The notes under the pieces were generated by a model. The model did not search any database, was not told the DNA's origin, and saw only the letters and a program-made list of their open reading frames with translations. Source: Bdellovibrionota bacterium (GTDB taxonomy: Bacteria; Bdellovibrionota_C; UBA2361; JBIKWN01). Taken from it: a stretch of 39,501 nucleotides of DNA. Positions 1,156 to 39,501 of this stretch are shown one piece after another. Location: assembly GCA_044356295.1 (NCBI GenBank), contig JBIKWN010000018.1, positions 1 to 39,501 on the forward strand, read 5' to 3'. Positions within the stretch are counted from its first letter, which is position 1. The number at the start of each line of letters is the position of its first letter. The translations under genes were made by a program, and so were the position numbers.

Positions 1156-1278
1156 ACCGTCTTCTATTACTAAACCTGCACAACAAACATTATGCTAATG
1201 TTATATAGACGCTGTTTTGTTAAGAGTCGTTGCGGTATTTAAACGATTTTTTACAATTTATTTTAGGGACGAACTATA

Positions 1279-12375: not shown

Positions 12376-12397
12376 GGGACGCTCACCTTTATATCTA
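12373..12397. repeat. left end of the ~82-bp TIR element (copy 1, partial), overlapping the stop codons of glpD and ATPase 1
   Basis: taggggacgctcacctttatatcta, identical to 17361-17385. Confidence 0.9.
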
Positions 12398-13732: not shown

Positions 13733-14857
13733 TTAAACCATCTTTTCCAACTGACAAAAAATCCTAAACGGCAAAACATGTATAGTGCCATCCATGTATT
13801 GTTCCTCTGCTTCAAAATGAACTTGATAAAACTTAGGAATATTCGTTCTATCTTTATAATATCTAATACTTTTTGAAATCTGTTTTGCTCCCGTTTTGCA
13901 TTCAACTGCAAATATCGGTTTTCCTTCGCGAAGAACTACAAAATCGATCTCTCTGCCATCAACATCTTTAAGATATCGTAGATCCATTTTTGCCCCTTCT
14001 GTATCTTCGAGAAAGTTACAGTATTTAAGCAGATGCGAGGCAACTACGTTCTCAATTCTTGCACCTTTGTCTTCTATTGTTGACCAATCCCATAAATAAA
14101 GTTTAGGTGTTTTCTTTACAGCCCGAATTTTCTTAACACCATAAGGATAAATTCTGTAACAAAAATATACTTGCTCGAGAAGCATAATCCAGTGAGACAC
14201 ACTATTAGGGGATACTTCAAGGTCTTCTTGTAAAGACTTAATCGAAAGTGCCGCGCCAACCTTCTGAGGTAACATATCAACAAGTAGTTCAATCATTGAT
14301 ATTTCTTTAACACGACTAAGATCATTAACATCCTGCAAGACAACACGGCTCACTCTTTCTCGCTGCCATCTCTTTAAAAAAATCTTACTTTTCTTCAAAA
14401 AAGGTTCTGGAAAGCCACCGAATTCAATGAGTGTTTCAAGCGTTTTGCTTCCACAATGAGGATCGATTTCTGGCAATGTAAAAGGATGAAGACGATAATA
14501 AAAGATCCTTCCAAACAGCGAATCACCGCCTTTACGAAAATGATCAAGTTGTGCAGAACCAGTGACTATAATTTGTAGCTTTTGCTTATACTTATCGTAT
14601 AAACCTTTCAATAACATTCTCCAGCGAGCATATTTATGAATTTCATCGAGCACTACTATACCAAGTGTCGGATCAATTTGGTGAGATTTGATTTTCTGAC
14701 GATCAGCAAGATCATCCCAGTTTAAATACTGGTTATTGTGTTTTGTATAGTGCTTTGCAAGTGTCGTTTTCCCAACTTGTCGTGGCCCTCCAATAATTAC
14801 AATTTTCTCGACTAAATCAGTTTTAACATACTGTTGGAGATACCGAGTAATATTCAT
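13733..14857 (-). CDS. AAA_14 ATPase with DUF4143 / PD-(D/E)XK C-terminal domain (copy 2)
   Basis: GPRQVGKTT, VLDEIHK, TGSA, GGFPEP, ENVVASHL, REIDFV...VECKTG. Confidence 0.9.
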   Translation of the reverse strand: MNITRYLQQYVKTDLVEKIVIIGGPRQVGKTTLAKHYTKHNNQYLNWDDLADRQKIKSHQIDPTLGIVVLDEIHKYARWRMLLKGLYDKYKQKLQIIVTGSAQLDHFRKGGDSLFGRIFYYRLHPFTLPEIDPHCGSKTLETLIEFGGFPEPFLKKSKIFLKRWQRERVSRVVLQDVNDLSRVKEISMIELLVDMLPQKVGAALSIKSLQEDLEVSPNSVSHWIMLLEQVYFCYRIYPYGVKKIRAVKKTPKLYLWDWSTIEDKGARIENVVASHLLKYCNFLEDTEGAKMDLRYLKDVDGREIDFVVLREGKPIFAVECKTGAKQISKSIRYYKDRTNIPKFYQVHFEAEEQYMDGTIHVLPFRIFCQLEKMV

Positions 14858-20469: not shown

Positions 20470-22137
20470 TCATCCATATCCGAATGGGTTTCCACCGTCA
20501 TACTCGTTACGGATGTCAGTTGATTCAGCATTTGGCAAGAGCGTTACATCAATTGATTCGCTACCTTCTCCACCTCTCCACCCTTTCAATCGCATGGTAC
20601 TATTAGGGAAATCTTTCAATAACTTTTCAAATTGTTCAGGAGTCTTTATGAGAATCTCTTTACCTGAAACTTCAACAAAAGTAATAACATCACCCCTCTT
20701 AAGTCCTGCCTTTTGAGCTGGTGAACCTTTACTAACATTGTCGATATTTATACCCTCTCTCTGGAACCATCCAGTCCAATCTGTCCATTTAGAATATCCA
20801 ATCCCAAATCCAGTTTGCTTATGACGAGATCCTACATTTACTGAAAGAGAAAGAGGAGCTTTACTACCACCCCTAAATACTCCCATGGATACAGTTTGTC
20901 CCTGACAAGGTGAAACTAAATCAAAAAATTCTTTGGCATCTAATTCATGCACAGGACTATTTGATATCTTCGGCACTTTATGATTATTAAATGTTAAAAT
21001 AACATCGCCAATTTTCAGTCCAGCACGGTCTGCAGGACTGCCAGGTGTAATAGTGGTGACTTCCGCTCCTGGAACTTTCCCCCACCAAAAGTCGATTCTA
21101 GGCTTAACTTTTACCCCTAAATAACCAACTGTCGTTCCAAGCGATGCTGCACGCCCTTCGGGCGCATTCGATCCTTTACTCGACCCTGGTTTGTCATCAG
21201 TACGTTTTACCATCGAGAAAACAGTAGCTCTTTGATCTCCATCATCACCTGGTGAAACTACAATTTGCGGATCGCGATATTCAATTGCACATTTTACTTC
21301 ATCTGCACCGATTTGTGATAAAATTCTACCAAAGAAATTCATATCTCCGGATTTACTTTTTACATCATTTAATTTCTGCTCACTGATGGCTATTGTTAAT
21401 ATTTGAAAACCAATTTTTAAGTTAAATTTATCGGCTCTCGATTTGTTACTGATCGAGGTAACAGTACCATCAGAATCAATTTCAACACCAAGTATGTCTT
21501 TAAAAGCTTTTGCTTCTTCGACTCCTAACGGCTCTTTTTGAGCTGGTTTATCAGGATCTGCTTTCTTAGGTTCATTACTATTGTTTTGTTTATTTTGCTC
21601 GATGTACTTGATAATTTTTTCACACTCTGCTGTAGCAACACTCACACAACTATCATGAAGAATATTTAAAGCAATCTTTGGATCTTTTTCTGTTTCTGAT
21701 TCCTTATATTTATTAGATAACGAATCTATCAGATTATTCGTAGAGATATCTTTATCAAGGAATTGACTGAAAAATATTCCTTGAGGTGAAGACGCATCAT
21801 GTTTTGTAAGTCCGATTCCTAAAATCAAATATGCACGGGCTTTTATGAGTTCTGGATTAGAGTCAAATAGATTCTTTACTTCGTTTTGATCAGCATTAGG
21901 ATTATCTCGTAATTCTTTCAACGTTCTTAAAGCATCAGCATTTCTTGTAATAATGTCTTGAGCATTTTTTAAAACTTTCTCAACATAAGCTTGCTTATCA
22001 ATATTAGGAATATTTTTAATATGTTCTAGCTCACGGGCAATCATCGCATCACGCTGAGCACGTCTCACTTGTGCAAGAGAAACTTCAGGACCGGGGGTAG
22101 AAGGCAATTGATCTACTTTTTGAAGAATATTATTCAT
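20470..22137 (-). CDS. multi-PDZ domain protein
   Basis: YLGV...ITPGSPADRAGLKIGDVILTFN and GFGI...VSKGSPAQKAGLKRGDVITFV, plus a degenerate LGVEI...SRADKFNLKIG repeat. Probable ATG 22137 with AGAGGT RBS. Confidence 0.85.
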   Translation of the reverse strand: MNNILQKVDQLPSTPGPEVSLAQVRRAQRDAMIARELEHIKNIPNIDKQAYVEKVLKNAQDIITRNADALRTLKELRDNPNADQNEVKNLFDSNPELIKARAYLILGIGLTKHDASSPQGIFFSQFLDKDISTNNLIDSLSNKYKESETEKDPKIALNILHDSCVSVATAECEKIIKYIEQNKQNNSNEPKKADPDKPAQKEPLGVEEAKAFKDILGVEIDSDGTVTSISNKSRADKFNLKIGFQILTIAISEQKLNDVKSKSGDMNFFGRILSQIGADEVKCAIEYRDPQIVVSPGDDGDQRATVFSMVKRTDDKPGSSKGSNAPEGRAASLGTTVGYLGVKVKPRIDFWWGKVPGAEVTTITPGSPADRAGLKIGDVILTFNNHKVPKISNSPVHELDAKEFFDLVSPCQGQTVSMGVFRGGSKAPLSLSVNVGSRHKQTGFGIGYSKWTDWTGWFQREGINIDNVSKGSPAQKAGLKRGDVITFVEVSGKEILIKTPEQFEKLLKDFPNSTMRLKGWRGGEGSESIDVTLLPNAESTDIRNEYDGGNPFGYG

Positions 22138-22162
22138 AAAACCTCTAAACAAAGAACTTACT

Positions 22163-22193
22163 ATAGATATACAGAGATTTTACAAAATGTTAC
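22163..22193 (-). promoter_or_regulatory. shared bipartite motif GTAACA-N16-TATATCTAT
   Basis: Minus strand gtaaca-ttttgtaaaatctctg-tatatctat, upstream of the PDZ gene. Confidence 0.55.
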
Positions 22194-22234
22194 ATTAGAA
22201 GATCTATAGTAACTTATTGATATCATTAATGATT

Positions 22235-23281
22235 TTACTGTTTATAGATTTCTTTTCGAAGCTTCTCTGATTGACTCTTCATCGCCTGATCAAAGTCTAG
22301 TAGAGATTGTATGCCTTTCATCCAACTCTCGTAATTACCTACGATAAAAGTTTGTGGCGTAACATCAGGAATCTTGATCTCAGAAGTAGTATCTTTTAAG
22401 CCTTTGGCGAATGTACTATTGGTCGCTGCTTGATAGGCGATTAATCTTTGATTAAAAACATCCACAGGAATCAACTCAGTAGCATCAGCATTTTCTGCAA
22501 CGCGGTCGACAGCTGCAACATCACTCGTGTTAGCTCCCCAGCCTTGATAAATTCTCACATACTGACGAATGGTACCGTCTGAATCTTTCTTTTCTACAAC
22601 TCCCAGCACCGTCACTTGATGAATACTATCCTTGGAACCAGGTAACCAATTTAAAGTAGCAAAAAGTGGTGGAGATTTTGCTATGGCATCAGCATTATTC
22701 AAGAGAGAACTAAAAACTTTTGCTTTATCCGATTCACTCCCTATACCGATGTAAGATTGCCCAAAGATCGTTGAGAACATTTCAGATGACTTAGCAATGG
22801 TTACGCCAGATTCTGTTTGTGTTTGACCGTTTTGATCTTTAAACGTACGACTTACAGTGAAAGATTTAGTAATTGACTCCTGGAAAATAGACTCTACTTG
22901 ATCACGAGCAGCGAAATTCCCAGTAGGGTCAACCTGTTCAGGTTTTAATGTAAGCGTAATCCTAGCACCATTGACAACGGTATGACCTTTAATAGCTAAA
23001 TCTGAACAGATTCTTGCTAACTCAGCGGGGTCACGCTTTGCAAGAGCATACATAGCAGCAGCAGAAACACAGTCTGAACTAATCCCTTGGTTAATCTTGC
23101 TAGGATCATTTATTAGTTCCCGAAGCTCATTGGCAAATTCAGAACCTATACCCTTTTGACAATTACCTTTGTCGATTGCATCTTGGATACGTTGTAATTC
23201 CCTCTCAATGAAAGCGTTATTAGGTAATTCAGCCTTAGCGCTTCCTGTTGTATGTCTTACGGTTTCTTCTAATTTAGTCAT
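22235..23281 (-). CDS. putative papain/calpain-like cysteine protease
   Basis: INQGISSDCVSAAAMYAL (Gln + Cys), IHQVTVLGV (His), VRIYQGWG (aligns with the calpain-type xNPWG motif). Confidence 0.55.
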   Translation of the reverse strand: MTKLEETVRHTTGSAKAELPNNAFIERELQRIQDAIDKGNCQKGIGSEFANELRELINDPSKINQGISSDCVSAAAMYALAKRDPAELARICSDLAIKGHTVVNGARITLTLKPEQVDPTGNFAARDQVESIFQESITKSFTVSRTFKDQNGQTQTESGVTIAKSSEMFSTIFGQSYIGIGSESDKAKVFSSLLNNADAIAKSPPLFATLNWLPGSKDSIHQVTVLGVVEKKDSDGTIRQYVRIYQGWGANTSDVAAVDRVAENADATELIPVDVFNQRLIAYQAATNSTFAKGLKDTTSEIKIPDVTPQTFIVGNYESWMKGIQSLLDFDQAMKSQSEKLRKEIYKQ

Positions 23282-23298
23282 ATAATTAATACGAAACG

Positions 23299-25194
23299 TT
23301 ATGCTACTTTTTCATTAGACGATACTGAAGAATTGGAGCTAGGTTTTCCCCTACTCTTTTTCTCACGTTCAAGTTCCTCGAAGTATTCACCATATGTTTT
23401 ACTTTTTGCAGTTGTAAAATCTCTTTTGGTTTCTCCCATTTTTATTGAAGTCTCACGTTCTCTTTCAAATGAATGTGCATGGAAATCATCGCTATTTCCT
23501 TGCGAAGGAATATCATCATTTTTTATGCCTTTTTTCTTCTTTGCACCGTCTATGTCTGCATCTTTAGGTCGTTTATCTTTTTTATTTTTGATCTTCATTC
23601 TTTCAGTAAGTTTTTTACAAGAACGATGCACCCCTTCTTCAAATCCTTCTTTACTAGCTGTTTTTATATCTGCACCAAATGATTCATCAACAGCTACACC
23701 ACGTGAATCAAGGAGTTGAGTCATCTCATCAACAGCTTCATTGAAACGAGTGTGATATGCCTTGGAAAAAGGTGAATCTTTAATGGTGTCAGTTAAACCT
23801 GAGGCGATACCATCTTTAAATGCTAATCTATCTGTTTTCGAGAACTTCCATCGGTCATTAGCAATTTCACGACATGCTTTTGCAAGTTTTGCTCGCTCTG
23901 CAGGGGGCAAATGAGCATACTCAGAATCTATAATTTCCTTAAAGAATGAAATGTCTTTTTGTTTTAGTTTGCGTAATCCATGCTCTTTTACTTTTTCTGC
24001 AAGAGCATTTAGAGAAGCTTCTACCTCTTTTTCTGATAATGCTTTACTTCCCTTGAGCGTTCTCGAAAGTAGATTTTGATTTTCTCGGAATAAATTTTCT
24101 GCAGCTTCTTTGAATAAAGCATCTGTACTTTCTTCGCCAACTTTAGTTGCTGATTGCTTCACTGCATCGCAAATGATCTTCTTGACCGGATCTGATGACA
24201 AATATTGTGCAAGCTCTTTACCAAGTTCTTCAGGAAGCTTTTGTGTAGCATTTTTTAAGATTCCATCCTTTGCCAGTTGTTGAAGCGCTTGCTTTGTACT
24301 TTCCTCTAAAACATTCTCAGCAGTTGCAGAAGCAAGCTTTGAAGTTGCCCATTGCTGAACAACATCATCAACAGATGATCGCATCGCTGAGGCAACAGTA
24401 TCTGCTGCTGCATTGCCGAGAGCGACCTGTCTTTCAGTTGAAACAAGTAATTTAGTAATTAAGGAACCGCCTTCTTTTCCTACGACTGATCCAGTAACTT
24501 GCATTGCTTCTTTGGCAACACTTTTATAAAGAAGTGGATTAATCATTGCACGTCCAGTTTGTAATGCAGCATTTGCCTGACCAAATGAATAAACCGTCAT
24601 TGCTAGTTTTGCACCACCCCAGAGGAGCTTACTAAATCCTTCACTGAGCCTTGTATTATCACCACTTTTCCAAGCATCGATAAGTATTGAAAGCCCTTGA
24701 TAGATATCAGTGACGCCAACTGTATTCCCAATTTTTTCGATACCCTTACAAAGGTTTTCCCATGCACCATTAAGATCTCCAGTAAATAGACATGCTATCG
24801 ATTTACCAATATCAAACAAACCAAAGCCATCTATCAACGATATAACTGTGTCTTTGATAAAGTTAGAAACCTGAGGAACCAGACTTCCTAAGGATATTTT
24901 TATTCCAGACATATTGTCCCAGATCGTAGACCAAAAAGAAGGATCTGATTTTTCAATTTCTAAACAATTTTTGCCTGTAAGAGGGGGATACTGATTTGAA
25001 AGTGATAAAGATGAGTTAGCAGGGTTTATAACCTGTAGGTTTCCATTTACAGGATATTTAACTTCGTATTGTAGCGGGCTTTTAGGTGTATTAGGTAAGT
25101 TTGAAAATTGAATTGGTTGAGTGGCAACATTTGAAACATCAATGACATTAATGTCACTACTGTCTGCTTTTTTAAATTCGAGTTGTCCTGCCAT
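23299..25194 (-). CDS. hypothetical helical protein with hydrophobic Gly-rich segments
   Basis: 631 aa; hydrophobic/amphipathic stretches in about aa 90-215, Ala/Lys/Glu-rich helices, charged tail; GAGGT RBS. Confidence 0.8.
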   Translation of the reverse strand: MAGQLEFKKADSSDINVIDVSNVATQPIQFSNLPNTPKSPLQYEVKYPVNGNLQVINPANSSLSLSNQYPPLTGKNCLEIEKSDPSFWSTIWDNMSGIKISLGSLVPQVSNFIKDTVISLIDGFGLFDIGKSIACLFTGDLNGAWENLCKGIEKIGNTVGVTDIYQGLSILIDAWKSGDNTRLSEGFSKLLWGGAKLAMTVYSFGQANAALQTGRAMINPLLYKSVAKEAMQVTGSVVGKEGGSLITKLLVSTERQVALGNAAADTVASAMRSSVDDVVQQWATSKLASATAENVLEESTKQALQQLAKDGILKNATQKLPEELGKELAQYLSSDPVKKIICDAVKQSATKVGEESTDALFKEAAENLFRENQNLLSRTLKGSKALSEKEVEASLNALAEKVKEHGLRKLKQKDISFFKEIIDSEYAHLPPAERAKLAKACREIANDRWKFSKTDRLAFKDGIASGLTDTIKDSPFSKAYHTRFNEAVDEMTQLLDSRGVAVDESFGADIKTASKEGFEEGVHRSCKKLTERMKIKNKKDKRPKDADIDGAKKKKGIKNDDIPSQGNSDDFHAHSFERERETSIKMGETKRDFTTAKSKTYGEYFEELEREKKSRGKPSSNSSVSSNEKVA

Positions 25195-25217
25195 AAAACC
25201 TCATCAACTATATATAC

Positions 25218-25248
25218 ATAGTTATGTTTTAAAGCCTAAAAATGTAAC
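25218..25248 (-). promoter_or_regulatory. shared bipartite motif GTTACA-N16-CATAACTAT
   Basis: Minus strand gttaca-tttttaggctttaaaa-cataactat, upstream of ATG 25194. Confidence 0.6.
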
Positions 25249-25281
25249 ATATAATATTACCATCTAACTTATTGCAATTAC

Positions 25282-28197
25282 TCATCTATTTGATCTTAGA
25301 GCGTGTATGAGAAAATCTTTTTTAAGCTTTATCGCTTCTAATTCAAGGCTATTCGAGATTCCACTTACTTTCCTTTCATATGCAATCAAAATTCTGGAAG
25401 TAGGTGGATGATCTTTCGTATCGAAACCAAATTCTTCAAGTACTTGTGGAAGTCTAAAATTCGAAAATCTATCACTCACAATTCGTTCTAGACTGAAACT
25501 TTTTTCGCGTATTACTGTTGGTTGTTCTTGCTTAGGGTTAAGAGAGACAAGCGTGGGCTCAAAACCTTCAATTTTTCTAATCGTAGGAACTGCAGATTGA
25601 AGTTCAAGAGCACGATAAATACCAAAGTGTTTAGCAAGCACTGCTCTTGCTCTATAAAAAGTTTCGATATTGAATCTGTATATTTTTCTGTTTTCCCATT
25701 CAAATGTAATTTCATCTCTATCTGTCTGAACAACCTTTTCACTAGTGCCATCATATTGACCCTTTTGATTTACTGGTATGAATTTCCCTCTTTGTGCCCA
25801 ATCATGTCCCGATTCTTTCCTATCTTTTTCATATCCCATGAGCCACATGATCTCATCTTGATGAGCGTCCATGTATCGCATCTCACGTTTTAATGCGACA
25901 CCCATACGTCGATAATCCTCTTCACCCGCATAGTATAAAAAAGCGGCAGCGAATTTTGGACGAAGCACAGGACTTCCATCAATGTTATATATGGGATTAC
26001 CTGATTTATCTTTTACTTCAATCACCTCACCATAAAAAGTAGGCATGTTAATATACTTTGCCTCTTCCATATGAATGTCAGAAACAGCTTGCCATTCAAA
26101 AGAATAGTTATCTTTGCCGTCTCGACTTTTATATGCAGTTAAAGTATTTAACATTGGGATCGAAACACCTAATGCCGGCACAAACACATCCTTAAATGTA
26201 TATTTAATGCTTCCCACTCGTGCTTCTGGTAAATTTTTATATCTTGGGTCATCAAGTGCTTGTATTGATTCAGCGTGATGTTCAGATGCAATACCATCAC
26301 GAACAATGACTTCACTATCAAGTTCAAGTTTGGCGGTCCCTACTCGCGATCTAGTAGAAGATTCAGTAGTATCCAAATCAAAATTGTATGTCCCATTCTG
26401 AATATTTTCATTTATCCCGTCGCATTCATACCAACGACGAGTGAATTGGGCGTCTATGGCAGAATAAAGTGCAATTCCCCCTGTCTTCATAGCAGAGGTA
26501 ACGACTCTCTGTTGTTTAAAAACAGTACCCCTATCCATCCAATATCCAAGTGTTCCAGCAATCTGCTGAACCACCCAGAAATGTTGACGAACACTCCCCT
26601 TACTTCCATTACCGCTCAGATCATGTTGGACTGCTAGGTTTATATCTATGAGTATATGTCCCGAAATTCTTGTTACAGCTGCAGAATATTGACTTTTTCC
26701 TCTGAGGTTATGGAATGAAACGAGTTGTCCATAATCAATAACTTCTTGTGGTGCGAAATCATTCAAACGTCTAAAGAGTATCTCCATCTCACTACGAAGA
26801 CCCGGCGTATCTTTTACTTGATATCTAAATACAGCACTTCTCTCTGGTACTGCCTCAGGAAAATTTTTAAAGTGAGGACCGACTAGTGCTTGCGGGTTTG
26901 TCGCAACTAGAGAAGATCCAATGTTATTCTTCCTTAGGTCAGGGCGTGGCTTTTGTCTATCTTTTACTGGGCACCCAGCTGGGCTAAGAATTCTTCCATT
27001 AACGAGTGACATTGCGTAGTCACGCATGAGTTGAGAGTGTGTCAGCCCCTTACTATGATCAATCTTTCTAGAAATTTCTAAATTGATAGGTTCACCGCTG
27101 TGTGAAGGAACCTGAACAATTTCTATCATTTTTCCGGTCCCGCTTGGCGCATGGGTTGGAAGTCCGAATCCAGCTAACGCATTATCCCGTTGATAATCAT
27201 AGACATTTTTTGCAAAACGATCTGAGACTTCATACGTATAAAGACCTAAATCAAACGAATCACCTGTTTGTGGATCTGTCATGAAAAATGGTTCATACAG
27301 ACTTCTTCCACTACAATCCTTAAGGTAATCTTGACTCGCTTCTTCAGTAGTATATGGGAGCGCCATATCACTTTCACCCGAAGAATCAATTTTTGCAGAC
27401 TGAAGAAAAAAAGTGATATCACTTACTGCTCGTTCACCTGTTTGCATGACTGCAACTTCTGAACTCTGTATTACAGACAATCCAGAAAGCTCTTCATGTG
27501 GTGCTAGTGCTTCAAGTGAATTTGCTAAGGATGCTACCATATCGCGAAAGACACTTCCCTTATCATATCCATTCGGGTATGGCTCACTCTTTGGCGTCAA
27601 GTAGGGCACTTCAACCATATGAAATTTTTCAGGATGGCCGACTATAGGATACCCTAAATAGTTGGATTGAATTACTGGCCCTCTTCCTTCTGGGGAATAA
27701 TAATCTGGGCATATTTTGGAAAATTCTACATGGTGACGACCAAGACCATTTTCTAAAGTAATCGAATTTTTTTCATCATACTGCGCTTTTTTAGATTTAA
27801 AATCTTTTGCCTTAGTAACACAAAGAAAAAATTGCTTTGGCACTTCGGTAGCAAACTCATCAAAAAATGCACCTGTAATTACTCCGAGCCGCGGTGAAAA
27901 AGATTGGTCCTCGCCGTCATATTTATCTTCCTCACTCAAAAGTTCAGGATGTTTAGAAATAAGATGATTAAACGCACGTGGATCATTTTCACTTATAATT
28001 TGTAAAAATTGATGATGTGGATTTATAAATCCGTGATTAATGTATGCTTCTGCAAGAGAAGTAATCAAAGTCACGCGGTAGCCATTAGCAGTTTCAATTG
28101 AAATAACTGTATCTTCAATAGGTTGATGAAATCTCTTGAAGTGGGCAGGTGCCTCCTCTTTAGTAGTAGGATCTATTTTTGCGAGGTGTTCAATCAT
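25282..28197 (-). CDS. large hypothetical protein
   Basis: 971-aa uninterrupted ORF with CAGGT RBS; no recognisable domain. Confidence 0.85.
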   Translation of the reverse strand: MIEHLAKIDPTTKEEAPAHFKRFHQPIEDTVISIETANGYRVTLITSLAEAYINHGFINPHHQFLQIISENDPRAFNHLISKHPELLSEEDKYDGEDQSFSPRLGVITGAFFDEFATEVPKQFFLCVTKAKDFKSKKAQYDEKNSITLENGLGRHHVEFSKICPDYYSPEGRGPVIQSNYLGYPIVGHPEKFHMVEVPYLTPKSEPYPNGYDKGSVFRDMVASLANSLEALAPHEELSGLSVIQSSEVAVMQTGERAVSDITFFLQSAKIDSSGESDMALPYTTEEASQDYLKDCSGRSLYEPFFMTDPQTGDSFDLGLYTYEVSDRFAKNVYDYQRDNALAGFGLPTHAPSGTGKMIEIVQVPSHSGEPINLEISRKIDHSKGLTHSQLMRDYAMSLVNGRILSPAGCPVKDRQKPRPDLRKNNIGSSLVATNPQALVGPHFKNFPEAVPERSAVFRYQVKDTPGLRSEMEILFRRLNDFAPQEVIDYGQLVSFHNLRGKSQYSAAVTRISGHILIDINLAVQHDLSGNGSKGSVRQHFWVVQQIAGTLGYWMDRGTVFKQQRVVTSAMKTGGIALYSAIDAQFTRRWYECDGINENIQNGTYNFDLDTTESSTRSRVGTAKLELDSEVIVRDGIASEHHAESIQALDDPRYKNLPEARVGSIKYTFKDVFVPALGVSIPMLNTLTAYKSRDGKDNYSFEWQAVSDIHMEEAKYINMPTFYGEVIEVKDKSGNPIYNIDGSPVLRPKFAAAFLYYAGEEDYRRMGVALKREMRYMDAHQDEIMWLMGYEKDRKESGHDWAQRGKFIPVNQKGQYDGTSEKVVQTDRDEITFEWENRKIYRFNIETFYRARAVLAKHFGIYRALELQSAVPTIRKIEGFEPTLVSLNPKQEQPTVIREKSFSLERIVSDRFSNFRLPQVLEEFGFDTKDHPPTSRILIAYERKVSGISNSLELEAIKLKKDFLIHALRSNR

Positions 28198-28221
28198 ATA
28201 ACCTGCTGACTTACTAGATCA

Positions 28222-31044: not shown

Positions 31045-31105
31045 AAGATTAACCTAATGAAATAGTTCGTAGTGAAAAGGAGAAAAGTAAACCTTTTGTC
31101 CTTAA

Positions 31106-31136
31106 ATAGTTATGCTGAAAGAGAGAAATATGTATC
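31106..31136 (-). promoter_or_regulatory. shared bipartite motif GATACA-N16-CATAACTAT
   Basis: Minus strand gataca-tatttctctctttcag-cataactat, upstream of ATG 31044. Confidence 0.6.
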
Positions 31137-31181
31137 TTTAAAAAAAGTAGAATTTTACCAATAGTTTCGGCTAGTTACGCA

Positions 31182-32519
31182 TTACTTCAACGTTTCTAAT
31201 AATCCTTGTTTAGTAATATAGATTGTTTTAGTTTTTTTAGTCTTTGGATTTACTAAATAGACAGCTAAATAGGCATCGCCTTCACTATCAATAAATGTAG
31301 TAAATTTTTCTCTGAGTTTAGCTTCAAGTTTAGCTCTTTTTTGTGAGTCGCTTAATTCACCACCATCAAGAACAATGTCACTGACCTTTGCGATACAGTA
31401 GTCCTTCCAGTCTCCTACAGTGGTAGGAATCATTCTCTTAAGGCCGTTGTCGTACACAAAAGAATTCTTAAGGAGGGCACTCGGTTCAATAAAACGATTA
31501 AATTCATAACTACGGCCTCGTGCCGGCAGTGATGTCATTACCTGTGCACCTGTTGTTAGATCCGAGACAACAGGCCACTGCATATATGCATCAGCAGGAT
31601 TAAAGAAATACTTCTGCAAGACGCCGGATGTATTGACGCTTTTATAAATTTCAGTTTTTCCAAGTAATGTATCTATTGATGCAGTTTTTAGTTTCTCTTT
31701 GGCGCTATTGAAGTCGACAGAAGATGGTTGACCATTCCCGCTTGTATTAGAAGAGGCTTGACGAGCAGTAACTTCATGAATCGATGCTAAACAGAGGGCA
31801 AGCGACCCTCCAACCTGAAAAGAATTAGCAGCGACACTACCCTGCCCAACACCCAACTGCTGTTCAATTGCTTTCTCGGAAAGAGAAGTTCGATCACTTA
31901 GTTTTTTTAATTTTTCTGGATTCAAATTATTATTAGTGACACATTCATCCAGAATAGTTTTTGAAGCGATGATAACAGCGAGGTATCCTCTTTCTTTTAG
32001 AAAATCATTTAATGCGATATTTGTAGCAGTAATTTTTTGTATTGTTTGTGCATTAAGCGAAGTTCCCGCTGAAGCTAATGCTGCGTTTCGCTCTTTTAAT
32101 AGTTCATTGTAACGATTTAATGCTGGTTCATATTCATCCACTTTAGCAAGCATTTCTTTTAATAAAGCGTTTCTAGTATCAGGGGTACCATTTATAATAC
32201 GCGTCAGTAACTCTTCACGGGCTTCTAAAGTTGCTTGAATACGAGGCAATACAATCGCTTCCTGTTTAATAGCTGTAAGCATCTCATTAGAAAGTGCTTC
32301 ATTAGGCTTTATTTCTTTGCCTCCTGGTGCGAGCAATTCACCAAGCAACTTAACTCCTTCTTGCGAAGGCATGCTTGCTCCACGAAGACCAGCACGAATT
32401 TTATCACGATCTACTTTCACATCAGAGAAGGCATAAGACTGTAGTGCAACACTTGCAGAAACTTCTGGTTCATTTTTTCTAGCAAGTTCATCTGGTGTCG
32501 GTAGACTTTGCTGTTCCAT
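31182..32519 (-). CDS. hypothetical protein (helical N-terminal half)
   Basis: 445-aa ORF directly after the traG-like gene; no recognisable domain. Confidence 0.8.
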   Translation of the reverse strand: MEQQSLPTPDELARKNEPEVSASVALQSYAFSDVKVDRDKIRAGLRGASMPSQEGVKLLGELLAPGGKEIKPNEALSNEMLTAIKQEAIVLPRIQATLEAREELLTRIINGTPDTRNALLKEMLAKVDEYEPALNRYNELLKERNAALASAGTSLNAQTIQKITATNIALNDFLKERGYLAVIIASKTILDECVTNNNLNPEKLKKLSDRTSLSEKAIEQQLGVGQGSVAANSFQVGGSLALCLASIHEVTARQASSNTSGNGQPSSVDFNSAKEKLKTASIDTLLGKTEIYKSVNTSGVLQKYFFNPADAYMQWPVVSDLTTGAQVMTSLPARGRSYEFNRFIEPSALLKNSFVYDNGLKRMIPTTVGDWKDYCIAKVSDIVLDGGELSDSQKRAKLEAKLREKFTTFIDSEGDAYLAVYLVNPKTKKTKTIYITKQGLLETLK

Positions 32520-32577
32520 AATCTTATTACAACTGTATTTTTATCTAATATAATTTGAATTGAGATCCTAAACTAAT

Positions 32578-35500
32578 TTATTTTGAAGGCTTTTTGTCTT
32601 CATCTTTTGGTCCTTGGTCGACACGTGCCATTGGAATATCTACTCGAGGTCGATTATCCGCCCCTGCTGGAAGACTTGCAGCACCTACACCATCTGTTCT
32701 AGTCTTTGCATCAGCACCGCCATAGGTAGCAAGTGGCGCACCAAGTCCATTCGCGGTTGCAAAATTATATCCTCCATCAAGACCCCATGTTGCCACCCCA
32801 CCATTTGCTCCAGTGGCGAAGTTATTTTTGTACTCTGTATTTGCGTTACCTAATGCATTACCTAATTTCCAAGGCTCAGCTGAATCACGGAATGCTCCAA
32901 GCAATCTATTCTCGCCGTATGCTTGTCCGGCTGCATTAAACATTTGATTGTGGGTACCAAATATTCCCTTAGAATTATCACCCTGCCATGTTAAGTCTAA
33001 ATATCGAGCTTGTTGATCCTTGCCAAGCTGTCCTGAACCAACAAGGTTTCCATATTCTGTATTAAACTGACCACTATTGTTGACGTTTGTGACTGCAAGT
33101 AATCCACTATTAGCAGCCTCTAGGAAGAAATTATTTTGTCCGTCTAGTGCACTATCCTGTGTCAATCCATTAACCATACTTGTTCCACGATTGGCTGCAC
33201 CGCCAAGTAACTCACCATATGCACGAGCTCTTGCCATATCTTGATCAAGACCTCCAACTTGGGCTTGTGTCATTGCTTGAGAGTTGAGTGTCTTGGAATC
33301 AATAACAAACTGACCGGTTTTAGAATCAATATCTACACCGGTACCAAAGAAGTTGGCCATGCTATTACCAACCCATGCTTTACCATTGAAAAATCCTGCT
33401 CCAACAAACTGTTGTCCTGGCGTTGCTTGACCACCAGCTCCACCTCCTGCACCACTTGCTCCAACAAATCCACCAGATGAGTTATGATCTGCACCTTGTG
33501 GTGAAGATCTAACAACTCCCGTCGGATTACCTCCTTGTCCACCACCAGCACCACTACCGCTTGCGCCTCCGGCGGGTGCTCCACCTGAAATTCTAGCTGC
33601 ATCTGCAGCCTGAAGTTTCCCTCTATCCATTGAATCACCGTTCCAGATTTCAGATTCAAGTAAACCTTGGGCAACAGCAGGGGTCATATGTAGATTACCT
33701 GGATTACCATTAACTACATTTTGTAAATCTCGCTTTGTAGGTAATCCCTGCCCGTTGTTTCGTACAGCCTGATTCGCTAAAAATGCAATTGCAGTATTTG
33801 GATTAGCCAGCATCGAAGCCATTTCAGTTTCATACTGAAGATTTCGTGATCCCAAACGTTGACCGACATCAACCATTCCCTGCATATTACGAAGACCAGT
33901 CGCTTGTGCACCCATTGCACCAACATTTAAATTATTTCTTGCAGCAGTATTTTGCGCGCCAAGTATCCCTTGACTAAAATCAAACTTCTCACCATTGGCA
34001 AGGGTACCTTGTTCGATTGCCTTTAATGCATATGCCCTATTTTGTAATGCTTGAGCTCGTTGCATATTTCCAGTCATGTTTGCTTGCATTGCGTCGCCAG
34101 CTTTCTTACCAACTTCATTAGCCATCCCTTGAAACGCCTGAGTAATACTCCCAGCCATACTAGCCTTAGCCCCAAGCACCAACTGCCCAGTAATCATCGG
34201 GACTGCAAAATACAGCGCAGCCATAATATAAATGTAATATGAATTCTGTAGATCCAGATCCATGTTTGAAAATAATGTCATGCTGCGATCAAGGAATGCG
34301 TAGGAATTCATTGAAAGTTTAAGATTCGCAGGATCTTTGAAACCAACTAACGCAAGTTTTGTTGCATCTGGAATTTTTGCACCTGCACCCGCCCCTTGCC
34401 AAACGGTCGTACCGAAGTCGAGCATCTGTGCAATAAACGGATTTAACTGGGTTGCCTTGGAAGAGTTACCAATCGTTGCCCAAACACTTCTTTCAAATAG
34501 TACAACAATTGCAAAACCTAGATCCCAAAGTTTTGCCCAAACCCAAAATGACGCCCAAGTAAAAATTATCTTACTGCACCGAGGAAGTAACATAACAGCA
34601 CATGCAAATGGATATCCCAACGCGAGAAGATACAACAATAATCCCTGAAGATACGGCATCATCAATGCCCAGGAATAAATTTCACCAAATTTATTTCTTG
34701 AGCCTACGGTTTTTTGGTACATCTCAATTGCATTTTGTGCAGATTGCGCAGAAGTAAATCGTAATTTACGTACTGCTGCATTAGGAGCGAGTAAAAACTC
34801 GTTTTTAAACATATTAATCAATATAAGATTAATCATGAACTGTCGGCGGGCCTCGGGGGTTTCAACTTTCGGAGGATTTTTATCTTCTGCGATAATTTGC
34901 TTCCAACTTTTTGCTCCTGCAGTCGCTGGGAACAAAACTTCTTTCGGATACTTTCTTACATCCCAACCATTTAAGAAAGCATTATCAAATTGATCTGGAT
35001 TCTCAACACCAACAGGTAATTGACGAACAAGTTGTGTGTATACACCTGCAGCTTCCCAGCGGAAACCTCGAACGATAATATCTAGTAAATGCCCGCATTG
35101 AATCTGTCCTGAACTTTGTAAAAGCTCATCTAAAGTGAGGAACTCAGCAACAGGAACAGGGGAACCGTTTGGCAAAATGACACCTTTAAAAAACTTTACT
35201 TCCTCCCCTACTCCATCTTTTGCAAGTAATGCATTTCTAAAACTACCCGGCTGAGGAATATCAATACCACCATTGTCCTTAGTAGCATAAAGAAGTCGTC
35301 GGATAGCTAATGGCGTAGTCGTTGTTCCATTCAATTTTCTATTAAATTCAGAATAGGTTTTATTAAGATCTGCTTGATACTGTTCAGCGGTCACCCCCCC
35401 TGACATAAAAACGCCTGGTGGTATCGTTCCATTGATACTTTGCGAAGCAGCCATATAACGTGATGCATCAATTCCACTTTGAAAACGATCTCCACAACTG

Positions 35501-36243
35501 CTCGCCATAAACGTAATAAAAGAGTCCCGCAGTTCAGGTGAACTCAACCTTGCTTGAGCGATTGTATCAAGCATCCCCCATTTTAAATTTGAAAGCAGAT
35601 GCCAGCGACCACTAGTATCATTACCAGTTCCTGTGGAACTAGCACCAGATGTTGAACCTACCGACTGACCCTTATAGACACCCAGCCACTTGATGATTTC
35701 TTGAATTGTATCACTTACAACTCCGTCCAGCTGAGCGAATGCAAAAGAGATATTCACTGTTCCATTACCATTCACACCACCTGAAGGAGGGGCAAACCCA
35801 TTAACGACTAACCCTTCACGTTCTGTAATGTTCATCGTTTTTAAACCAACTTCAGCTAGCTTCCAAACTTCTTGTTGTTCTTGCGGAACACCAGCTACTT
35901 TCCATGCTGTTCCCATCACCGGAGAAGTCGTTCCTAATAAAAAGTGGAAAAGTACTGGGCCCATAAAAAACCACACATACATTTTTGGCGGAGATCCCAT
36001 CGCCATTCCAACCATGCCGCTTATAAGGGCAATCATATAAATAAAAACTGCGAACCGTTGAAACTCACCTGCACCCACAAAGTTCAGCATATCTGCATGA
36101 ATCCAATAACCTTGTGTTGCAAATGCTGCAGTAACAGCATGAAAACTGGACCCTGGCATTAATTCAGAGTAACCATTATTCGCAAAAAGTCCCCCAAAGG
36201 CACCGTTGATTGCGTCTATAAGTCCCTGTAATATTCCAAACAC
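32578..36243 (-). CDS. TraG_N-like (F-type mating-pair stabilisation) membrane protein with Gly-rich C-terminus
   Basis: Two N-terminal TM helices, large Cys-containing soluble domain, then MPYLQGLLLYLLALGYPFACAV...FWVWAKLWDLGFAIV and YIMAALYFAVPMI TM cluster as in TraG_N; GTG start with GAGGG RBS. Confidence 0.7.
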   Translation of the reverse strand: MFGILQGLIDAINGAFGGLFANNGYSELMPGSSFHAVTAAFATQGYWIHADMLNFVGAGEFQRFAVFIYMIALISGMVGMAMGSPPKMYVWFFMGPVLFHFLLGTTSPVMGTAWKVAGVPQEQQEVWKLAEVGLKTMNITEREGLVVNGFAPPSGGVNGNGTVNISFAFAQLDGVVSDTIQEIIKWLGVYKGQSVGSTSGASSTGTGNDTSGRWHLLSNLKWGMLDTIAQARLSSPELRDSFITFMASSCGDRFQSGIDASRYMAASQSINGTIPPGVFMSGGVTAEQYQADLNKTYSEFNRKLNGTTTTPLAIRRLLYATKDNGGIDIPQPGSFRNALLAKDGVGEEVKFFKGVILPNGSPVPVAEFLTLDELLQSSGQIQCGHLLDIIVRGFRWEAAGVYTQLVRQLPVGVENPDQFDNAFLNGWDVRKYPKEVLFPATAGAKSWKQIIAEDKNPPKVETPEARRQFMINLILINMFKNEFLLAPNAAVRKLRFTSAQSAQNAIEMYQKTVGSRNKFGEIYSWALMMPYLQGLLLYLLALGYPFACAVMLLPRCSKIIFTWASFWVWAKLWDLGFAIVVLFERSVWATIGNSSKATQLNPFIAQMLDFGTTVWQGAGAGAKIPDATKLALVGFKDPANLKLSMNSYAFLDRSMTLFSNMDLDLQNSYYIYIMAALYFAVPMITGQLVLGAKASMAGSITQAFQGMANEVGKKAGDAMQANMTGNMQRAQALQNRAYALKAIEQGTLANGEKFDFSQGILGAQNTAARNNLNVGAMGAQATGLRNMQGMVDVGQRLGSRNLQYETEMASMLANPNTAIAFLANQAVRNNGQGLPTKRDLQNVVNGNPGNLHMTPAVAQGLLESEIWNGDSMDRGKLQAADAARISGGAPAGGASGSGAGGGQGGNPTGVVRSSPQGADHNSSGGFVGASGAGGGAGGQATPGQQFVGAGFFNGKAWVGNSMANFFGTGVDIDSKTGQFVIDSKTLNSQAMTQAQVGGLDQDMARARAYGELLGGAANRGTSMVNGLTQDSALDGQNNFFLEAANSGLLAVTNVNNSGQFNTEYGNLVGSGQLGKDQQARYLDLTWQGDNSKGIFGTHNQMFNAAGQAYGENRLLGAFRDSAEPWKLGNALGNANTEYKNNFATGANGGVATWGLDGGYNFATANGLGAPLATYGGADAKTRTDGVGAASLPAGADNRPRVDIPMARVDQGPKDEDKKPSK

Positions 36244-36277
36244 TTCAATCCCTCTTATTCATACAATCAAATCATTA

Positions 36278-38080
36278 TTATTTTGAAGCAGGTGCAATCC
36301 GCTCCTTAAGTACGTTTAAAAATTGTTGATAACTCGATGCAAAATACTGCGCTGTTTCACGACTACCGTAATTTGGCGCAACATCACGAAGTAGATTTAT
36401 ACCAGCTTGTTTTGCTTCGGATTCAAAATCACCACCGGAAAGATTTCCAAGTATTGCGTAACCAGTTGCTACACTTGTATTAACTTGATCACCTGCAATA
36501 ATCGAAGCATACGTTAATGTTAACCAACGAACTCCTGCGACTCCATTACTAGCACCAGGCTTGTCAGAGAGAAGTCTTGAGACTGCTGTTTCGCCTTGTT
36601 CTAGTACCTTTGACTCAACCGGGGGTAATGTTGGATCCATCATATCGCACATTGAAGTACCACCATTCCCTCCTGGGAAAAGTATTTTTGCGTAAGTATA
36701 AATATTCTCTCCGACTACTCGATCAAAAGTTGAAAATGATGATGACAAAAGTTGCACTTCATTTCGAGTGATACGAATAGGCGACTCAACCTCTGATGGA
36801 GTCCAGAAAGCATCCGATGATGGTGGTGGTGGAGAATCTTCAGACCCTGAAGAAGGTGCTTGAATTCTGCAATACTTTGTTAATACTTTCCAAAGCGTAT
36901 AGTAAGTATAGTGAGTTTTAAAAGCTGCGTACTGCTCAAAACCGGTTGCTCCTTTATCTTTAAAAATATCAGCTTTAAACTGCTTTACATTATTTGCTGT
37001 TACTGCAGATTGATAGCTAAAAAAAGGTTTAATTTTTCTGACTGCAGTTCTCATAAAGGAAGTATTTGGGGTACCTCCTTCTTGATACACGTATTGAACA
37101 TCTCCAAAAAGATTACCCCAATCATAGGCTAATTGTGTTACAGCACGTTTAACCTCATCCGTTTTAAGAAAAGCACCAAGCGAAGCACTCACAAGAGTTG
37201 GTACAAAAAGTAGGTGTCTTAGTTTAATCTGATTAGTTTGTAGATCTTCCCCAGAAAAGATAGAACCAACTAAGCCTGCATTAAGCACATCTTCTTCTTT
37301 CCACTGGTTATTTCTAAAGACGCTTCGTTTGCCTTTAAAAGCAGGATGACTTGGGTGAAATTTGAATGATAAGGTGTCTGCTGCATTAGGATTTTCTAAC
37401 TTTGTTACAGAAAGAAGAACTTTATCTTGTTGTTTCAAACATGATTCTTGCGCAGATGCATATGTATAGTTTTGACTAACAAGTACAGCCATACATCGAC
37501 GATATGCTTCTGATAATTTTCTTCCACCTTCTCCTGAAGTATTAAATGCAAGTTGGGCATTTTGTTCTGCTTGATAACGTTGTTGACCAAAGCCCATAGC
37601 GAAAGAGAGTGACCGATCAAGTGCAGCGGCAGCTTGAGGGGATGCACTATTCCAAGACTGAAATGATAATGCTAAAGGTGAGAGCGCTTGCCCTCCTGCA
37701 GAAACACTTGCAGAAAGAACATCACCCATTTTTTTAGAATTCATTGTTTCTTTCAAAGCACCCATTGGTGATACAACAGCTATATTTGCATCAGCTGATA
37801 GCTGTTCAGAGAAAGACTCTATAGTGCATTTATCACCTTCGCATTCTTGATCTCTACGTGGATTACCCTGATTTGGAATATTTATGTTGACGTCATTTCC
37901 ACCTGTATCTTGAAGATTTACCAGCGGAACACCTGCACTGCCAATGGGACCGTTTACATTGCCAGTCAATGCTGAAACTGCTGCACCTATTGCACCTATT
38001 GGAATCCCTTGCGCTTGGGCTGAAGAGGCAGCAAACACTGCAACAATAATAAAACTAAAAATAAATTTTCTAAATTTCAT
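36278..38080 (-). CDS. secreted protein, TraH-like
   Basis: Sec signal (..AQA/Q), SFQSWNSASPQAAAALD helix, paired Cys (YRRC...QESC), LFGDV; located immediately before the traG-like gene. Assignment rests on weak motifs plus position. Confidence 0.45.
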   Translation of the reverse strand: MKFRKFIFSFIIVAVFAASSAQAQGIPIGAIGAAVSALTGNVNGPIGSAGVPLVNLQDTGGNDVNINIPNQGNPRRDQECEGDKCTIESFSEQLSADANIAVVSPMGALKETMNSKKMGDVLSASVSAGGQALSPLALSFQSWNSASPQAAAALDRSLSFAMGFGQQRYQAEQNAQLAFNTSGEGGRKLSEAYRRCMAVLVSQNYTYASAQESCLKQQDKVLLSVTKLENPNAADTLSFKFHPSHPAFKGKRSVFRNNQWKEEDVLNAGLVGSIFSGEDLQTNQIKLRHLLFVPTLVSASLGAFLKTDEVKRAVTQLAYDWGNLFGDVQYVYQEGGTPNTSFMRTAVRKIKPFFSYQSAVTANNVKQFKADIFKDKGATGFEQYAAFKTHYTYYTLWKVLTKYCRIQAPSSGSEDSPPPPSSDAFWTPSEVESPIRITRNEVQLLSSSFSTFDRVVGENIYTYAKILFPGGNGGTSMCDMMDPTLPPVESKVLEQGETAVSRLLSDKPGASNGVAGVRWLTLTYASIIAGDQVNTSVATGYAILGNLSGGDFESEAKQAGINLLRDVAPNYGSRETAQYFASSYQQFLNVLKERIAPASK

Positions 38081-38084
38081 CGTA

Positions 38085-39245
38085 TTACTTTCCCCCCATC
38101 ATCTGCTTTAGTGTCATAGCAATTTCATCTGCATTAGATGATTCACTTACACGTACAACTTTATTTGTATTTTTTGTAAGTAATAAAACTGCAGGAAGAC
38201 TTCCGCCGCTCATCGAGCCAAAAGTTTTTCCACCATTTTGAACTGGTATTGATATTCCACTTTTATCTGAAAATGAAAGTAATTCTGAAGTAGTAAGATT
38301 TAAACCACTTAGCGCAGAGAAAGTTACATTTGGATTCTGAGAAAACTTTTTATATAATTTTTCAACATCTTTTGCTCTTTCATAAGATGCATTTTGTGAG
38401 TTATCAAAAAAGAACAGAACAGATACTTCTCCTTTTGGATCAACTGGAATATCTGATTGATTTGAAACATCTCGAATTTGGCTACCCTCTTCTATTTGGG
38501 CTTCACGAATCATTCGTTGTGCTTTCGGATCAAGCCCTGCTACAGAAAGCTCTTTCTTACTCTCTGCAGAAAGTAAGTCATCTTCAAGAAGTTTTACATA
38601 AGGATTATCTTGAACATTTCCAGGACGAATTCCTTCACGCTCAACAGCTAACTCTTGCAGTTGAACAGTTCTGCCAACACGGTCAGACATGTTACGCATG
38701 TAGCGAACATATTGACGTGCATACTGGTAAGCTAGTTTATCGTTTCCAGAATCCATTGCAGCCATCATTCCTTTGAATGGAGTTGGCGCTTTGTCATCAG
38801 GGGTTAATGGAGATTCTTCGTTTGGATTTCCGTAGAATGCAAGTAACTGATCAGGTGATGCTTTTCTTGTGTCGAATGGTGGTTGTTTTGTTGCATCAAG
38901 TGGTTTGCCATTTTGGTTTTGCAATCCTACTTGTTGGATAAGTGGATCTTGGGTAGGACGATCTTTTTTCTCTTTATAAAAACCAACATCAGGTGATTCT
39001 GATTTTTCAGGCTCTTTTGCAAATACAGTGGTTGCTGCACCTTCATTGAACCAAACAGTTTCAGAAGGAAAAAATCCGTTCGTGTCTTTTTCGTTTTCAA
39101 CGCCGTCTTTCCCGCGGGCTTCGCGGTATTCTGGAAGCTCTGCCTGGACGGTGGTGGTAGCGATCGAAAAAAACCCAGCAATAATCGCCAGGGCAATCGC
39201 CCTAACACATTGAAATTGCAGTGTATTTTTATATTTCTGCTCCAT
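38085..39245 (-). CDS. secreted thioredoxin-fold protein, TraF-like (no CXXC)
   Basis: Signal peptide (..VQA/E), ARQYVRYMRNMSDR helix, C-terminal VLFFFDNSQNAS...LPAVLLL thioredoxin-like fold; traF-traH-traG gene order. Confidence 0.5.
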   Translation of the reverse strand: MEQKYKNTLQFQCVRAIALAIIAGFFSIATTTVQAELPEYREARGKDGVENEKDTNGFFPSETVWFNEGAATTVFAKEPEKSESPDVGFYKEKKDRPTQDPLIQQVGLQNQNGKPLDATKQPPFDTRKASPDQLLAFYGNPNEESPLTPDDKAPTPFKGMMAAMDSGNDKLAYQYARQYVRYMRNMSDRVGRTVQLQELAVEREGIRPGNVQDNPYVKLLEDDLLSAESKKELSVAGLDPKAQRMIREAQIEEGSQIRDVSNQSDIPVDPKGEVSVLFFFDNSQNASYERAKDVEKLYKKFSQNPNVTFSALSGLNLTTSELLSFSDKSGISIPVQNGGKTFGSMSGGSLPAVLLLTKNTNKVVRVSESSNADEIAMTLKQMMGGK

Positions 39246-39282: not shown

Positions 39283-39460
39283 CGCTTTTCCTCTTAAGGT
39301 AATCAGGATAAGTGCTGGTTTTGCTTCACAAAAAAAGGGGATTCTTGTCTTTGTAACTTATTGTATTTATTCATGATATTAATTTTATTGAAATCATTTA
39401 AGGTGTCCACCTTTGGGAGTACTACTGTCCGGTAGAAAGTAATTGAAGACATTTTTAGTA

Positions 39461-39487
39461 ACGCGAAGGTCGCGAAGTACGCGAAGG
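39461..39487. repeat. 9-bp tandem repeat x3
   Basis: acgcgaagg tcgcgaagt acgcgaagg. Confidence 0.7.
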
Positions 39488-39501
39488 ATTAGATGTAATC
39501 C

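Follow-up and report, generated by a model that had tools for sequence, protein, structure and literature searches.

We analysed the whole of contig JBIKWN010000018.1 (39,501 nt; hereafter the window, labelled C60), which belongs to a metagenome-assembled genome of a Bdellovibrionota bacterium (2.96 Mb in 128 contigs, 93.6% complete), concentrating on the row of genes that leads up to its right-hand end. Between positions 20470 and 39245 lie nine minus-strand open reading frames (ORFs), lettered A to I from the contig end inwards, all of them intact and with intergenic gaps of 17–137 bp; this is exactly the span that a preliminary description, made from the sequence letters alone, had given for nine co-oriented genes. 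A (38085–39245, 386 aa) and B (36278–38080, 600 aa) each have a signal-peptide-like N-terminus, as read from the translations, and a hydrophobic N-terminal segment in a hydropathy scan. C (32578–36243, 1221 aa) is polytopic, with hydrophobic segments in the same scan and a multi-helix membrane core in its predicted model. The earlier statements that A and B are signal-peptide proteins, B with paired cysteines (see below), and that C is a multi-transmembrane protein are borne out by these features. The remaining six products, D to I, have no hydrophobic N-terminus in the scan. Nor was a relaxase, coupling protein, VirB4 or integrase found among the other 18 ORFs of the window, which is likewise as first described.

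Pfam and NCBIfam searches with A–H at E ≤ 0.1 returned only scattered sub-threshold matches, none of them to Tra, J-domain or protease families. Comparison with relatives was based on a survey of 124 species genomes of the phylum and on 113 loci fetched from relatives (L- and G-numbers below are labels of loci and genomes respectively). Lake-water metagenome runs of four studies, one of which may be the source of the window, contain contigs with exactly its sequence that span parts of both A–C and D–I, and genes A–I can therefore be taken as real and stable.

Genes A, B and C

The preliminary description had read the first three genes as traF, traH and traG, the three parts of which fared differently. 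We begin with C, whose N-terminal ~750 aa would be of the TraG_N/VirB6 class and whose C-terminal ~470 aa are variable and Gly-rich. A homolog search returned 191 proteins of ~1000–1200 aa, all of them metagenome-assembled, with source names that include Oligoflexia, Bdellovibrionota, SAR324 and ‘Dadabacteria’; a precomputed TraG_N (PF07916) assignment is carried by 12 of the 120 homologs listed, of 191. Within the phylum, C was matched in 108 of the 124 genomes. When five of the C-‘negative’ genomes were retested by alignment, fragments of C were found at contig ends in three, so that assembly breaks account for at least some of the gaps. Identity to C declines by rank, from 51–61% within the genus to 32–41% within the order and ~25% in sister orders.

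It is the sister orders that connect C to TraG_N. Their loci (L108–L113) carry five tandem C paralogs behind an A ortholog and one protein of 680–820 aa (the A orthologs that head these rows lie, for example, at L110 32–1243 and L112 1–1062). Five such paralogs score 41.3, 45.1, 38.9, 40.0 and 52.9 bits against PF07916, above its curated Pfam cut-off of 36.1 bits, and a hidden Markov model (HMM) built from 37 order-level orthologs of C finds the paralogs of L108, L110 and L112 at 97–187 bits (E 1e-28 to 7e-56). Since the profile of C orthologs matches proteins that themselves pass the TraG_N cut-off, the link between C and TraG_N, transitive as it is, is solid, and C is best described, at the level of sequence profiles, as a remote member of the TraG_N/VirB6 class.

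The predicted structure may point weakly in the same direction. The AlphaFold 2 (AF2) model of C residues 1–760 has a pLDDT of 84.2 and a pTM of 0.84. In an exhaustive structure alignment against 48,161 PDB chains it placed DotA (9ngy_FP1) first and TrwI/VirB6 (7o3v_F) second, with alignment lengths of 235 and 232 residues, and no other long alignment ranked close to them; both proteins are classed as VirB6 in the excerpt of PMC12857230. A Foldseek search of the PDB with the same model gave no match at E ≤ 0.001. The earlier identification of C as TraG is thus upheld through the sister-order paralogs and this weak fold match, and not through any direct match to TraG_N.

Protein A combines a conserved helical N-domain, in which A172 and Y175 are invariant, with a C-terminal thioredoxin fold that contains an invariant cis-Pro, P351. 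Its orthologs give weak Thioredoxin_8/Thioredoxin_2 matches at the C-terminus (best 27.0 bits). In the alignment, the active-site position reads C-S-Y-C in the sister-order orthologs, and there is no CxxC in the order of this genome; the order has lost the motif, which would make A a redox-dead secreted thioredoxin-fold protein. Aligned by hhalign with TraF of the F plasmid, the A family reached a probability of 39% (E 3e-4) over the thioredoxin core, compared with 1% for the CxxC-bearing TrbB. A genome-wide search with PF13728 (TraF) had as its sole match an unrelated thioredoxin of 109 aa. What survives of the TraF assignment is therefore the secreted thioredoxin fold without CxxC: A looks TraF-like in design, and by profile it is not a member of the TraF family.

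The assignment of B to TraH found no support. B contains six cysteines, with conservation of 90% or more at C404 and C478, and it has two conserved cysteine pairs. B is directly upstream of C in 49 of the 51 loci with room for it (A is present in 39 of 44), and in L044, L072 and L077 B–C pairs have been duplicated together. The family evolves fast, and pairwise matches connect its members only in chains. A profile of 23 members, run against 1.84 billion representatives, recovered 324 proteins, of which 296 reached E ≤ 1e-10. Because the profile brings in no tail of further families, the family is closed and offers no link into TraH. A word-indexed homolog search with the B alignment gave just four matches, owing to its index. 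When the B family was aligned by hhalign with TraH of the F plasmid the probability was 0.15%, the single-sequence template making this a weak test.

The AF2 model of B, made from 120 sequences (pLDDT 81.7, pTM 0.81), consists largely of helices plus one small sheet, and found no relative in the PDB: the best Foldseek match had an E of 0.53 (none at E ≤ 0.001) and the best VIA-align 2 match a Z of 4.9. The PDB holds no solved structure of TraH, TraG or TraF of the F plasmid, and a PDB sequence search with the B profile gave nothing usable. In the ESM Atlas, the nearest named clusters carry the ‘TraW-like’ family PF28212 on 12–25% of their members (score 0.85), which we treat as a lead only. 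A complex prediction for B (residues 90–600) with a loop of C (residues 105–500) gave no verdict (score 0.00). By sequence, B represents a new closed family in the TraH position, and its place between A and C is the only feature that matches TraH.

The surroundings of A–B–C are conserved. Genes gcvT/H/P flank the module in several families, and in a genome of the same genus gcvH-gcvP-X1-X2-X3-A-B-C are contiguous, with no mobile genes. In the genome under study, contig C30 carries gcvT-H-P followed by X1 (317 aa), X2 (812 aa, 10 Cys) and X3 (294 aa), and synteny with the same-genus genome indicates that C30 probably joins the end of the window. X1, X2 and X3 have hydrophobic N-termini. Profile searches assigned no family to any of the three, and the ESM Atlas gave no usable match for X1.

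A core locus elsewhere in the genome

As a check on its proposal, the preliminary description had suggested looking for traLEKBVC outside the window, and TraE-, TraK-, TraB- and TraC-like genes were indeed found, apparently in F order, on contig C102. The row there encodes proteins of 168, 129, 215, 255, 406, 156, 156 and 905 aa, the last being TraC-like, and with the assignments given below its order would be that of traL-E-K-B-V-C in the F plasmid. The TraC-like protein scores 49.7 bits against TraC_F_IV (cut-off 28.1); its best VirB4 model is TIGR02746 (TraC-F-type) at 195.8 bits (E 9e-58), which is below the equivalog cut-off of 567. The TraB-like protein matches TrbI/VirB10 at 64.5 bits (cut-off 35) and F-type TraB at 65.9 bits. 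The TraE-like (21.1 bits) and TraK-like (16.5–20 bits) matches are sub-threshold, and TraL and TraV were assigned from size, hairpin or lipobox only, one of the two lipoproteins being TraV-like. A divergent pair on the same contig consists of a 626-aa membrane protein without known family and a TraD-like ATPase. The latter reaches 24 bits against TraG-D_C (cut-off 22) on a truncated ORF, which classes it as a coupling protein; its full-length orthologs score 52.7–57.9 bits against SXT_TraD, below the family cut-off.

The core is flanked by housekeeping genes, and the locus is syntenic in all five of the relatives fetched for it, one of which comes from another order. The TraC-F-type model finds one ORF of ~915 aa in 121 of the 124 genomes, at E values of ~1e-50 to 1e-62. 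In comparison, ordinary VirB4 (PF03135) is patchy (19/124) and absent from the genome under study. The claim that this lineage carries a chromosomally domesticated F-type apparatus is supported, more strongly than the window's sequence alone could show, by the core on C102, its housekeeping flanks, its presence in 121 of 124 genomes and the lack of a detected relaxase (below).

Several further genes accompany the core. The membrane protein, 626–714 aa long among relatives, is always paired with the TraD-like ATPase (L040, which is C102, 1782–3662, minus strand; L115 12723–14804; L117 4815–6959); it may help to recruit substrates, or else be a DNA-processing protein of a kind not yet recognised. 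Four small genes downstream of the TraC-like gene (L040 11200–13122) are conserved in relatives and encode a lipoprotein, a single-transmembrane protein, a membrane protein with a bPH_2 domain and a protein with an SH3 domain, which may be further parts of the machine. Just behind the core, a 310-aa ORF (L040 13115–14047, minus strand) has an IS200-like Y1 transposase domain (27 bits); the same-genus genome has it in the corresponding position.

On balance we lean modestly towards the view that A–B–C belong to a vertically inherited, F-type-derived type IV secretion machine whose genes are distributed over separate chromosomal loci. Here these would be the core and the TraD-like pair on C102, X1–X3 on C30 and A–B–C in the window. 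C would provide the VirB6-class channel or stalk subunit, A a redox-dead thioredoxin-fold periplasmic partner and B a helical, disulfide-bearing one. The strongest reason to assign the loci to a single machine comes from what the core lacks: it has no VirB6-class gene, and TrbL/VirB6 (PF04610) has no match in the genome, so that C is the only candidate for this subunit.

With respect to what such a machine moves, TrwC (PF08751), Relaxase (PF03432) and TraI_2 (PF07514) have no match in this 93.6%-complete genome (other MOB classes were not searched). The loci do not show the distribution of a conjugative element either: they are present in 121/124 and 108/124 genomes and have no mobile-element boundaries. 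We do not regard the system as a conjugative element, nor A and B as members of the TraF and TraH families. Given that the relaxase searches came back empty and that no mobile element carries the genes, the machine would most likely be used for something other than its own transfer; we favour contact-dependent protein translocation, or adhesion or pilus work at the cell envelope.

A number of observations weigh against a single F-type-derived machine. None of the three window genes matches its F counterpart directly. A has no Pfam/NCBIfam TraF match, and the NCBIfam TraF models match none of 25 members of its family; B has no Pfam/NCBIfam TraH match, PF06122 matching none of 84 family members; C has no PF07916 match at E ≤ 0.1, nor has any other protein of the genome, and its close orthologs reach 22.5 and 16.2 bits. 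Similarly, HMMs of A, B, C and X1–X3 found no match among the F plasmid's own Tra proteins, and hhalign of the C family with F TraG gave a probability of 0.5%, again a weak test with a single-sequence template. DotA and TrwI both align to the C model at a Z of 6.0, under the tool's noise bar of ~8. TraU (PF06834) and TraN (PF06986) were not found in the genome, no pilin was recognised, and canonical TraH (PF06122) is above cut-off in none of the 124 genomes, which leaves the machine incomplete by F standards. The A–B–C and core loci are never on the same contig (in G057 the TraD-like gene is on a third), and because both are nearly universal their co-occurrence is uninformative. G058, a genome in one contig with a marker-based completeness of 82%, has X1–X3-A–B–C without a TraC-like or TraD-like match. 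Finally, a relaxase of an unrecognised family is possible.

Genes D to I and alternative readings

Downstream of C the row continues with D (31182–32519, 445 aa), E (28222–31044, 940 aa, with two internal hydrophobic helices at residues 577–620), F (25282–28197, 971 aa), G (23299–25194, 631 aa), H (22235–23281, 348 aa) and I (20470–22152, 560 aa), all on the minus strand. D, E, F and H are orphans. The 113 fetched loci contain no homolog of any of the six apart from weak ones of G, the genome contains no paralogs of them, and they are absent even from the same-genus genome. Among 5.8 billion protein clusters, gene F retrieved no sequence other than its own (the search considered word-sharing candidates only), and neither D nor gene F has a Pfam family. 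G is the only one with relatives, weak ones, downstream of C elsewhere (phmmer E 2.8e-5 to ORFs in L074 and L076, which form a family present in three loci); it also has a sub-threshold DUF445 match of 21.7 bits. I ends in two PDZ domains (PDZ_6 63.8, PDZ_2 62.3 and PDZ 61.0 bits, two stretches each, above cut-off), with DegP-type PDZ matches in NCBIfam that lack the protease part, and its N-terminal half has no known family. Residues 127–238 of D weakly match the leucine-rich-repeat half of eukaryotic tropomodulin in the PDB (E 0.0068, 19 bits; a lead only), and PDB sequence searches with E, G and H gave nothing usable.

With regard to the first description of these proteins, the lack of a Sec-like N-terminus and a PDZ protein (I) were recovered, and two internal hydrophobic segments were seen in E. 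The J-domain and cysteine-protease readings of E and H were rejected, as Pfam and NCBIfam give no such match for D–H at E ≤ 0.1.

We surveyed 40 loci with at least 4 kb of sequence beyond C, counting as orphans co-oriented ORFs of at least 250 aa. One or more such orphans stand right after C in 18 of the loci; the other 22 have none, and in some of them conserved neighbours follow C directly. With orphans in 18/40 loci and something else in the rest, the site downstream of C is a variable spot. In the preferred reading, D–I are strain-specific genes inserted there, and would be candidate substrates of the machine. We give an even chance to the alternative that they are simply accessory genes without any connection to the machine, in a chromosomal spot that is hypervariable. 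Their orphan status and the 22 loci without such an orphan speak for this alternative. Those 22 loci also count against a role as substrates, as does the fact that D–I carry no recognisable secretion signal and that nothing ties them to secretion. On the other side stand the large co-oriented orphans found immediately behind C in 18 loci, the short gaps of 17–137 bp in the present row and the stability of the genes, seen as identical contigs in the runs of four studies.

A second alternative concerns the connection between the loci. A–B–C, together with X1–X3, might be an autonomous envelope module of type IV secretion system (T4SS) descent, for example a membrane assembly or adhesion complex, with the core as a separate entity. 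This would account for the fact that the two loci are never adjacent, for the module of G058 with no detectable TraC-like or TraD-like gene, for the separate duplication of B–C pairs in L044, L072 and L077, and for the five tandem C paralogs of the sister orders, an unusual number for a T4SS subunit. However, it leaves the core without a needed VirB6-class subunit for which the genome offers no other candidate, and both loci are kept almost universally; moreover, G058 is only 82% complete by markers. We consider it unlikely.

Somewhat less credit goes to the possibility that the machine still moves DNA, by chromosomal conjugation, by release as from the gonococcal island or by ComB-like uptake, with the help of an unrecognised relaxase or DNA-processing protein. 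Retention of a TraD-like coupling ATPase, always paired with the conserved 626–714-aa membrane protein, speaks for such a function, and our relaxase search covered three families only. Against this, none of those three families (TrwC, Relaxase, TraI_2) has a match in the genome, neither locus showed an integrase, an oriT-like feature or the boundary of a mobile element, and the distribution is vertical.

There remains the end of the contig, which lies 256 bp upstream of A inside a multi-copy repeat. One arm of this palindromic repeat, with 9-mer units of the CGCGAAGG type, occupies 39417–39490 and ends the contig; opposite arms of the 9-mer-array palindrome stand at the start of C30 (L018 1–20) and at the end of C60. 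The terminal repeat motif occurs at 41 of the 256 contig ends of the assembly, so that by itself it does not prove a join between C60 and C30. Read depth at the repeat is 165.7, compared with ~8.9 elsewhere (~18x), many contigs end there, and the repeat is probably a main cause of the fragmentation of the assembly. Many relatives (e.g. L019, L021, L022 and L024) also have a contig break within a few kb of A–B–C, which suggests repeats or strain-level variation around the module in natural populations. Between X3 and the probable junction with A, C30 carries two toxin–antitoxin pairs (a HigB-like protein and a Gp49-like protein, each with a helix-turn-helix partner; L018 72–661, plus strand, and 784–1400, minus strand) that are not at this place in the same-genus genome. 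A sigma-70-like -35/-10 match (39409–39382, minus strand, 10 of 12 positions) lies ~137 nt upstream of A; it is a consensus match only, and such matches are rarer in this region than in shuffles (37 vs 51.6).

A contig end so close to A and toxin–antitoxin pairs on the probable neighbouring contig are what might be expected if the region were a decaying or intact integrative conjugative element (ICE) that continues past the contig end, a reading that we reject as very improbable and largely refuted by the contiguous same-genus row without mobile genes, the intact ORFs, the absence of a compositional island in the base composition of the window and the presence of the module in nearly every genome of the order. 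One outcome that the preliminary description had named as fatal to its proposal, a complete ICE of patchy distribution, is not what we found: the loci are near-universal and have housekeeping flanks.

The left half of the window is likewise housekeeping in character (ScpA/ScpB, RluB-type and SpoU-type enzymes, a GlpD-like protein). It also contains two adjacent paralogous genes for AAA_14 + DUF4143 ATPases (12395–13561 and 13733–14857, minus strand).

Relation to known secretion systems

To our knowledge, nearly all F-type secretion machines described so far are transfer devices of plasmids and ICEs. The lineage-wide, repurposed chromosomal T4SSs are of P-type in Rickettsiales, of I-type in Legionellales and of monoderm-type in Patescibacteria. 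If the preferred reading of a dispersed F-type-derived machine is correct, with 121 of 124 species carrying the machine, its genes in separate chromosomal places and no relaxase detected, it would add one more domestication of independent origin, in a group related to bacterial predators. A search of full-text literature, whose scope leaves out most subscription journals, brought up no report of a comparable system from Bdellovibrionota. The loci also supply natural variants of the poorly understood TraG/VirB6 subunit together with confident models of C and B, and the combination makes TraG-type function testable by structure and co-evolution.

A much broader proposal, which as a whole we think rather improbable, is that a phylum-level, lake-dwelling lineage depends on a relaxase-free F-type-derived machine with new partners (B, X1–X3), whose VirB6-class subunit has become five-fold in sister orders and which injects strain-specific cassette proteins into prey or host cells; a conjugation pilus machine would then have given rise to an apparatus of predation or epibiosis.

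The closest comparison is with traF-traH-traG of the F plasmid (NC_002483). There, as here, a secreted thioredoxin-fold protein without CxxC is followed by a secreted Cys-bearing protein and a large polytopic protein of the TraG_N kind whose C-terminal part is long and variable, and variable genes lie downstream (traS and traT in F, D–I here). Unlike in F, A and B are without a profile-level match and C is linked through intermediates only; the block is chromosomal, vertically inherited and separated from the core genes, and the search for a relaxase found none. In structure, the two leading matches to the C(1–760) model are TrwI of R388 (7o3v), 232 of whose 261 residues align, and DotA of the Legionella Dot/Icm system (9ngy). 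The resemblance is distant, however, with a Z of 6.0 and a root-mean-square deviation of ~7 Å, and C carries in addition a periplasmic insert of ~400 aa and a C-terminal extension of ~470 aa.

As a whole, the system may be likened to the chromosomal T4SSs that serve as organs of entire lineages, such as rvh, Dot/Icm and that of Patescibacteria. The Rickettsiales rvh and Patescibacteria systems, as far as they are described in the excerpts of PMC2653234 and PMC12102498, are also lineage-wide, chromosomal, scattered over several loci and free of a mobile element; they are of P-type or monoderm-type, whereas the system here would be F-type-derived and belongs to an uncultured Bdellovibrio-like lineage. 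The F-type T4SS of the gonococcal genetic island, in the excerpt of PMC4207684, provides the precedent of a chromosomal F-type machine with a job other than plasmid transfer, namely DNA secretion. It differs from the present loci in having been acquired horizontally and in possessing a relaxase and canonical TraF, TraH and TraG.

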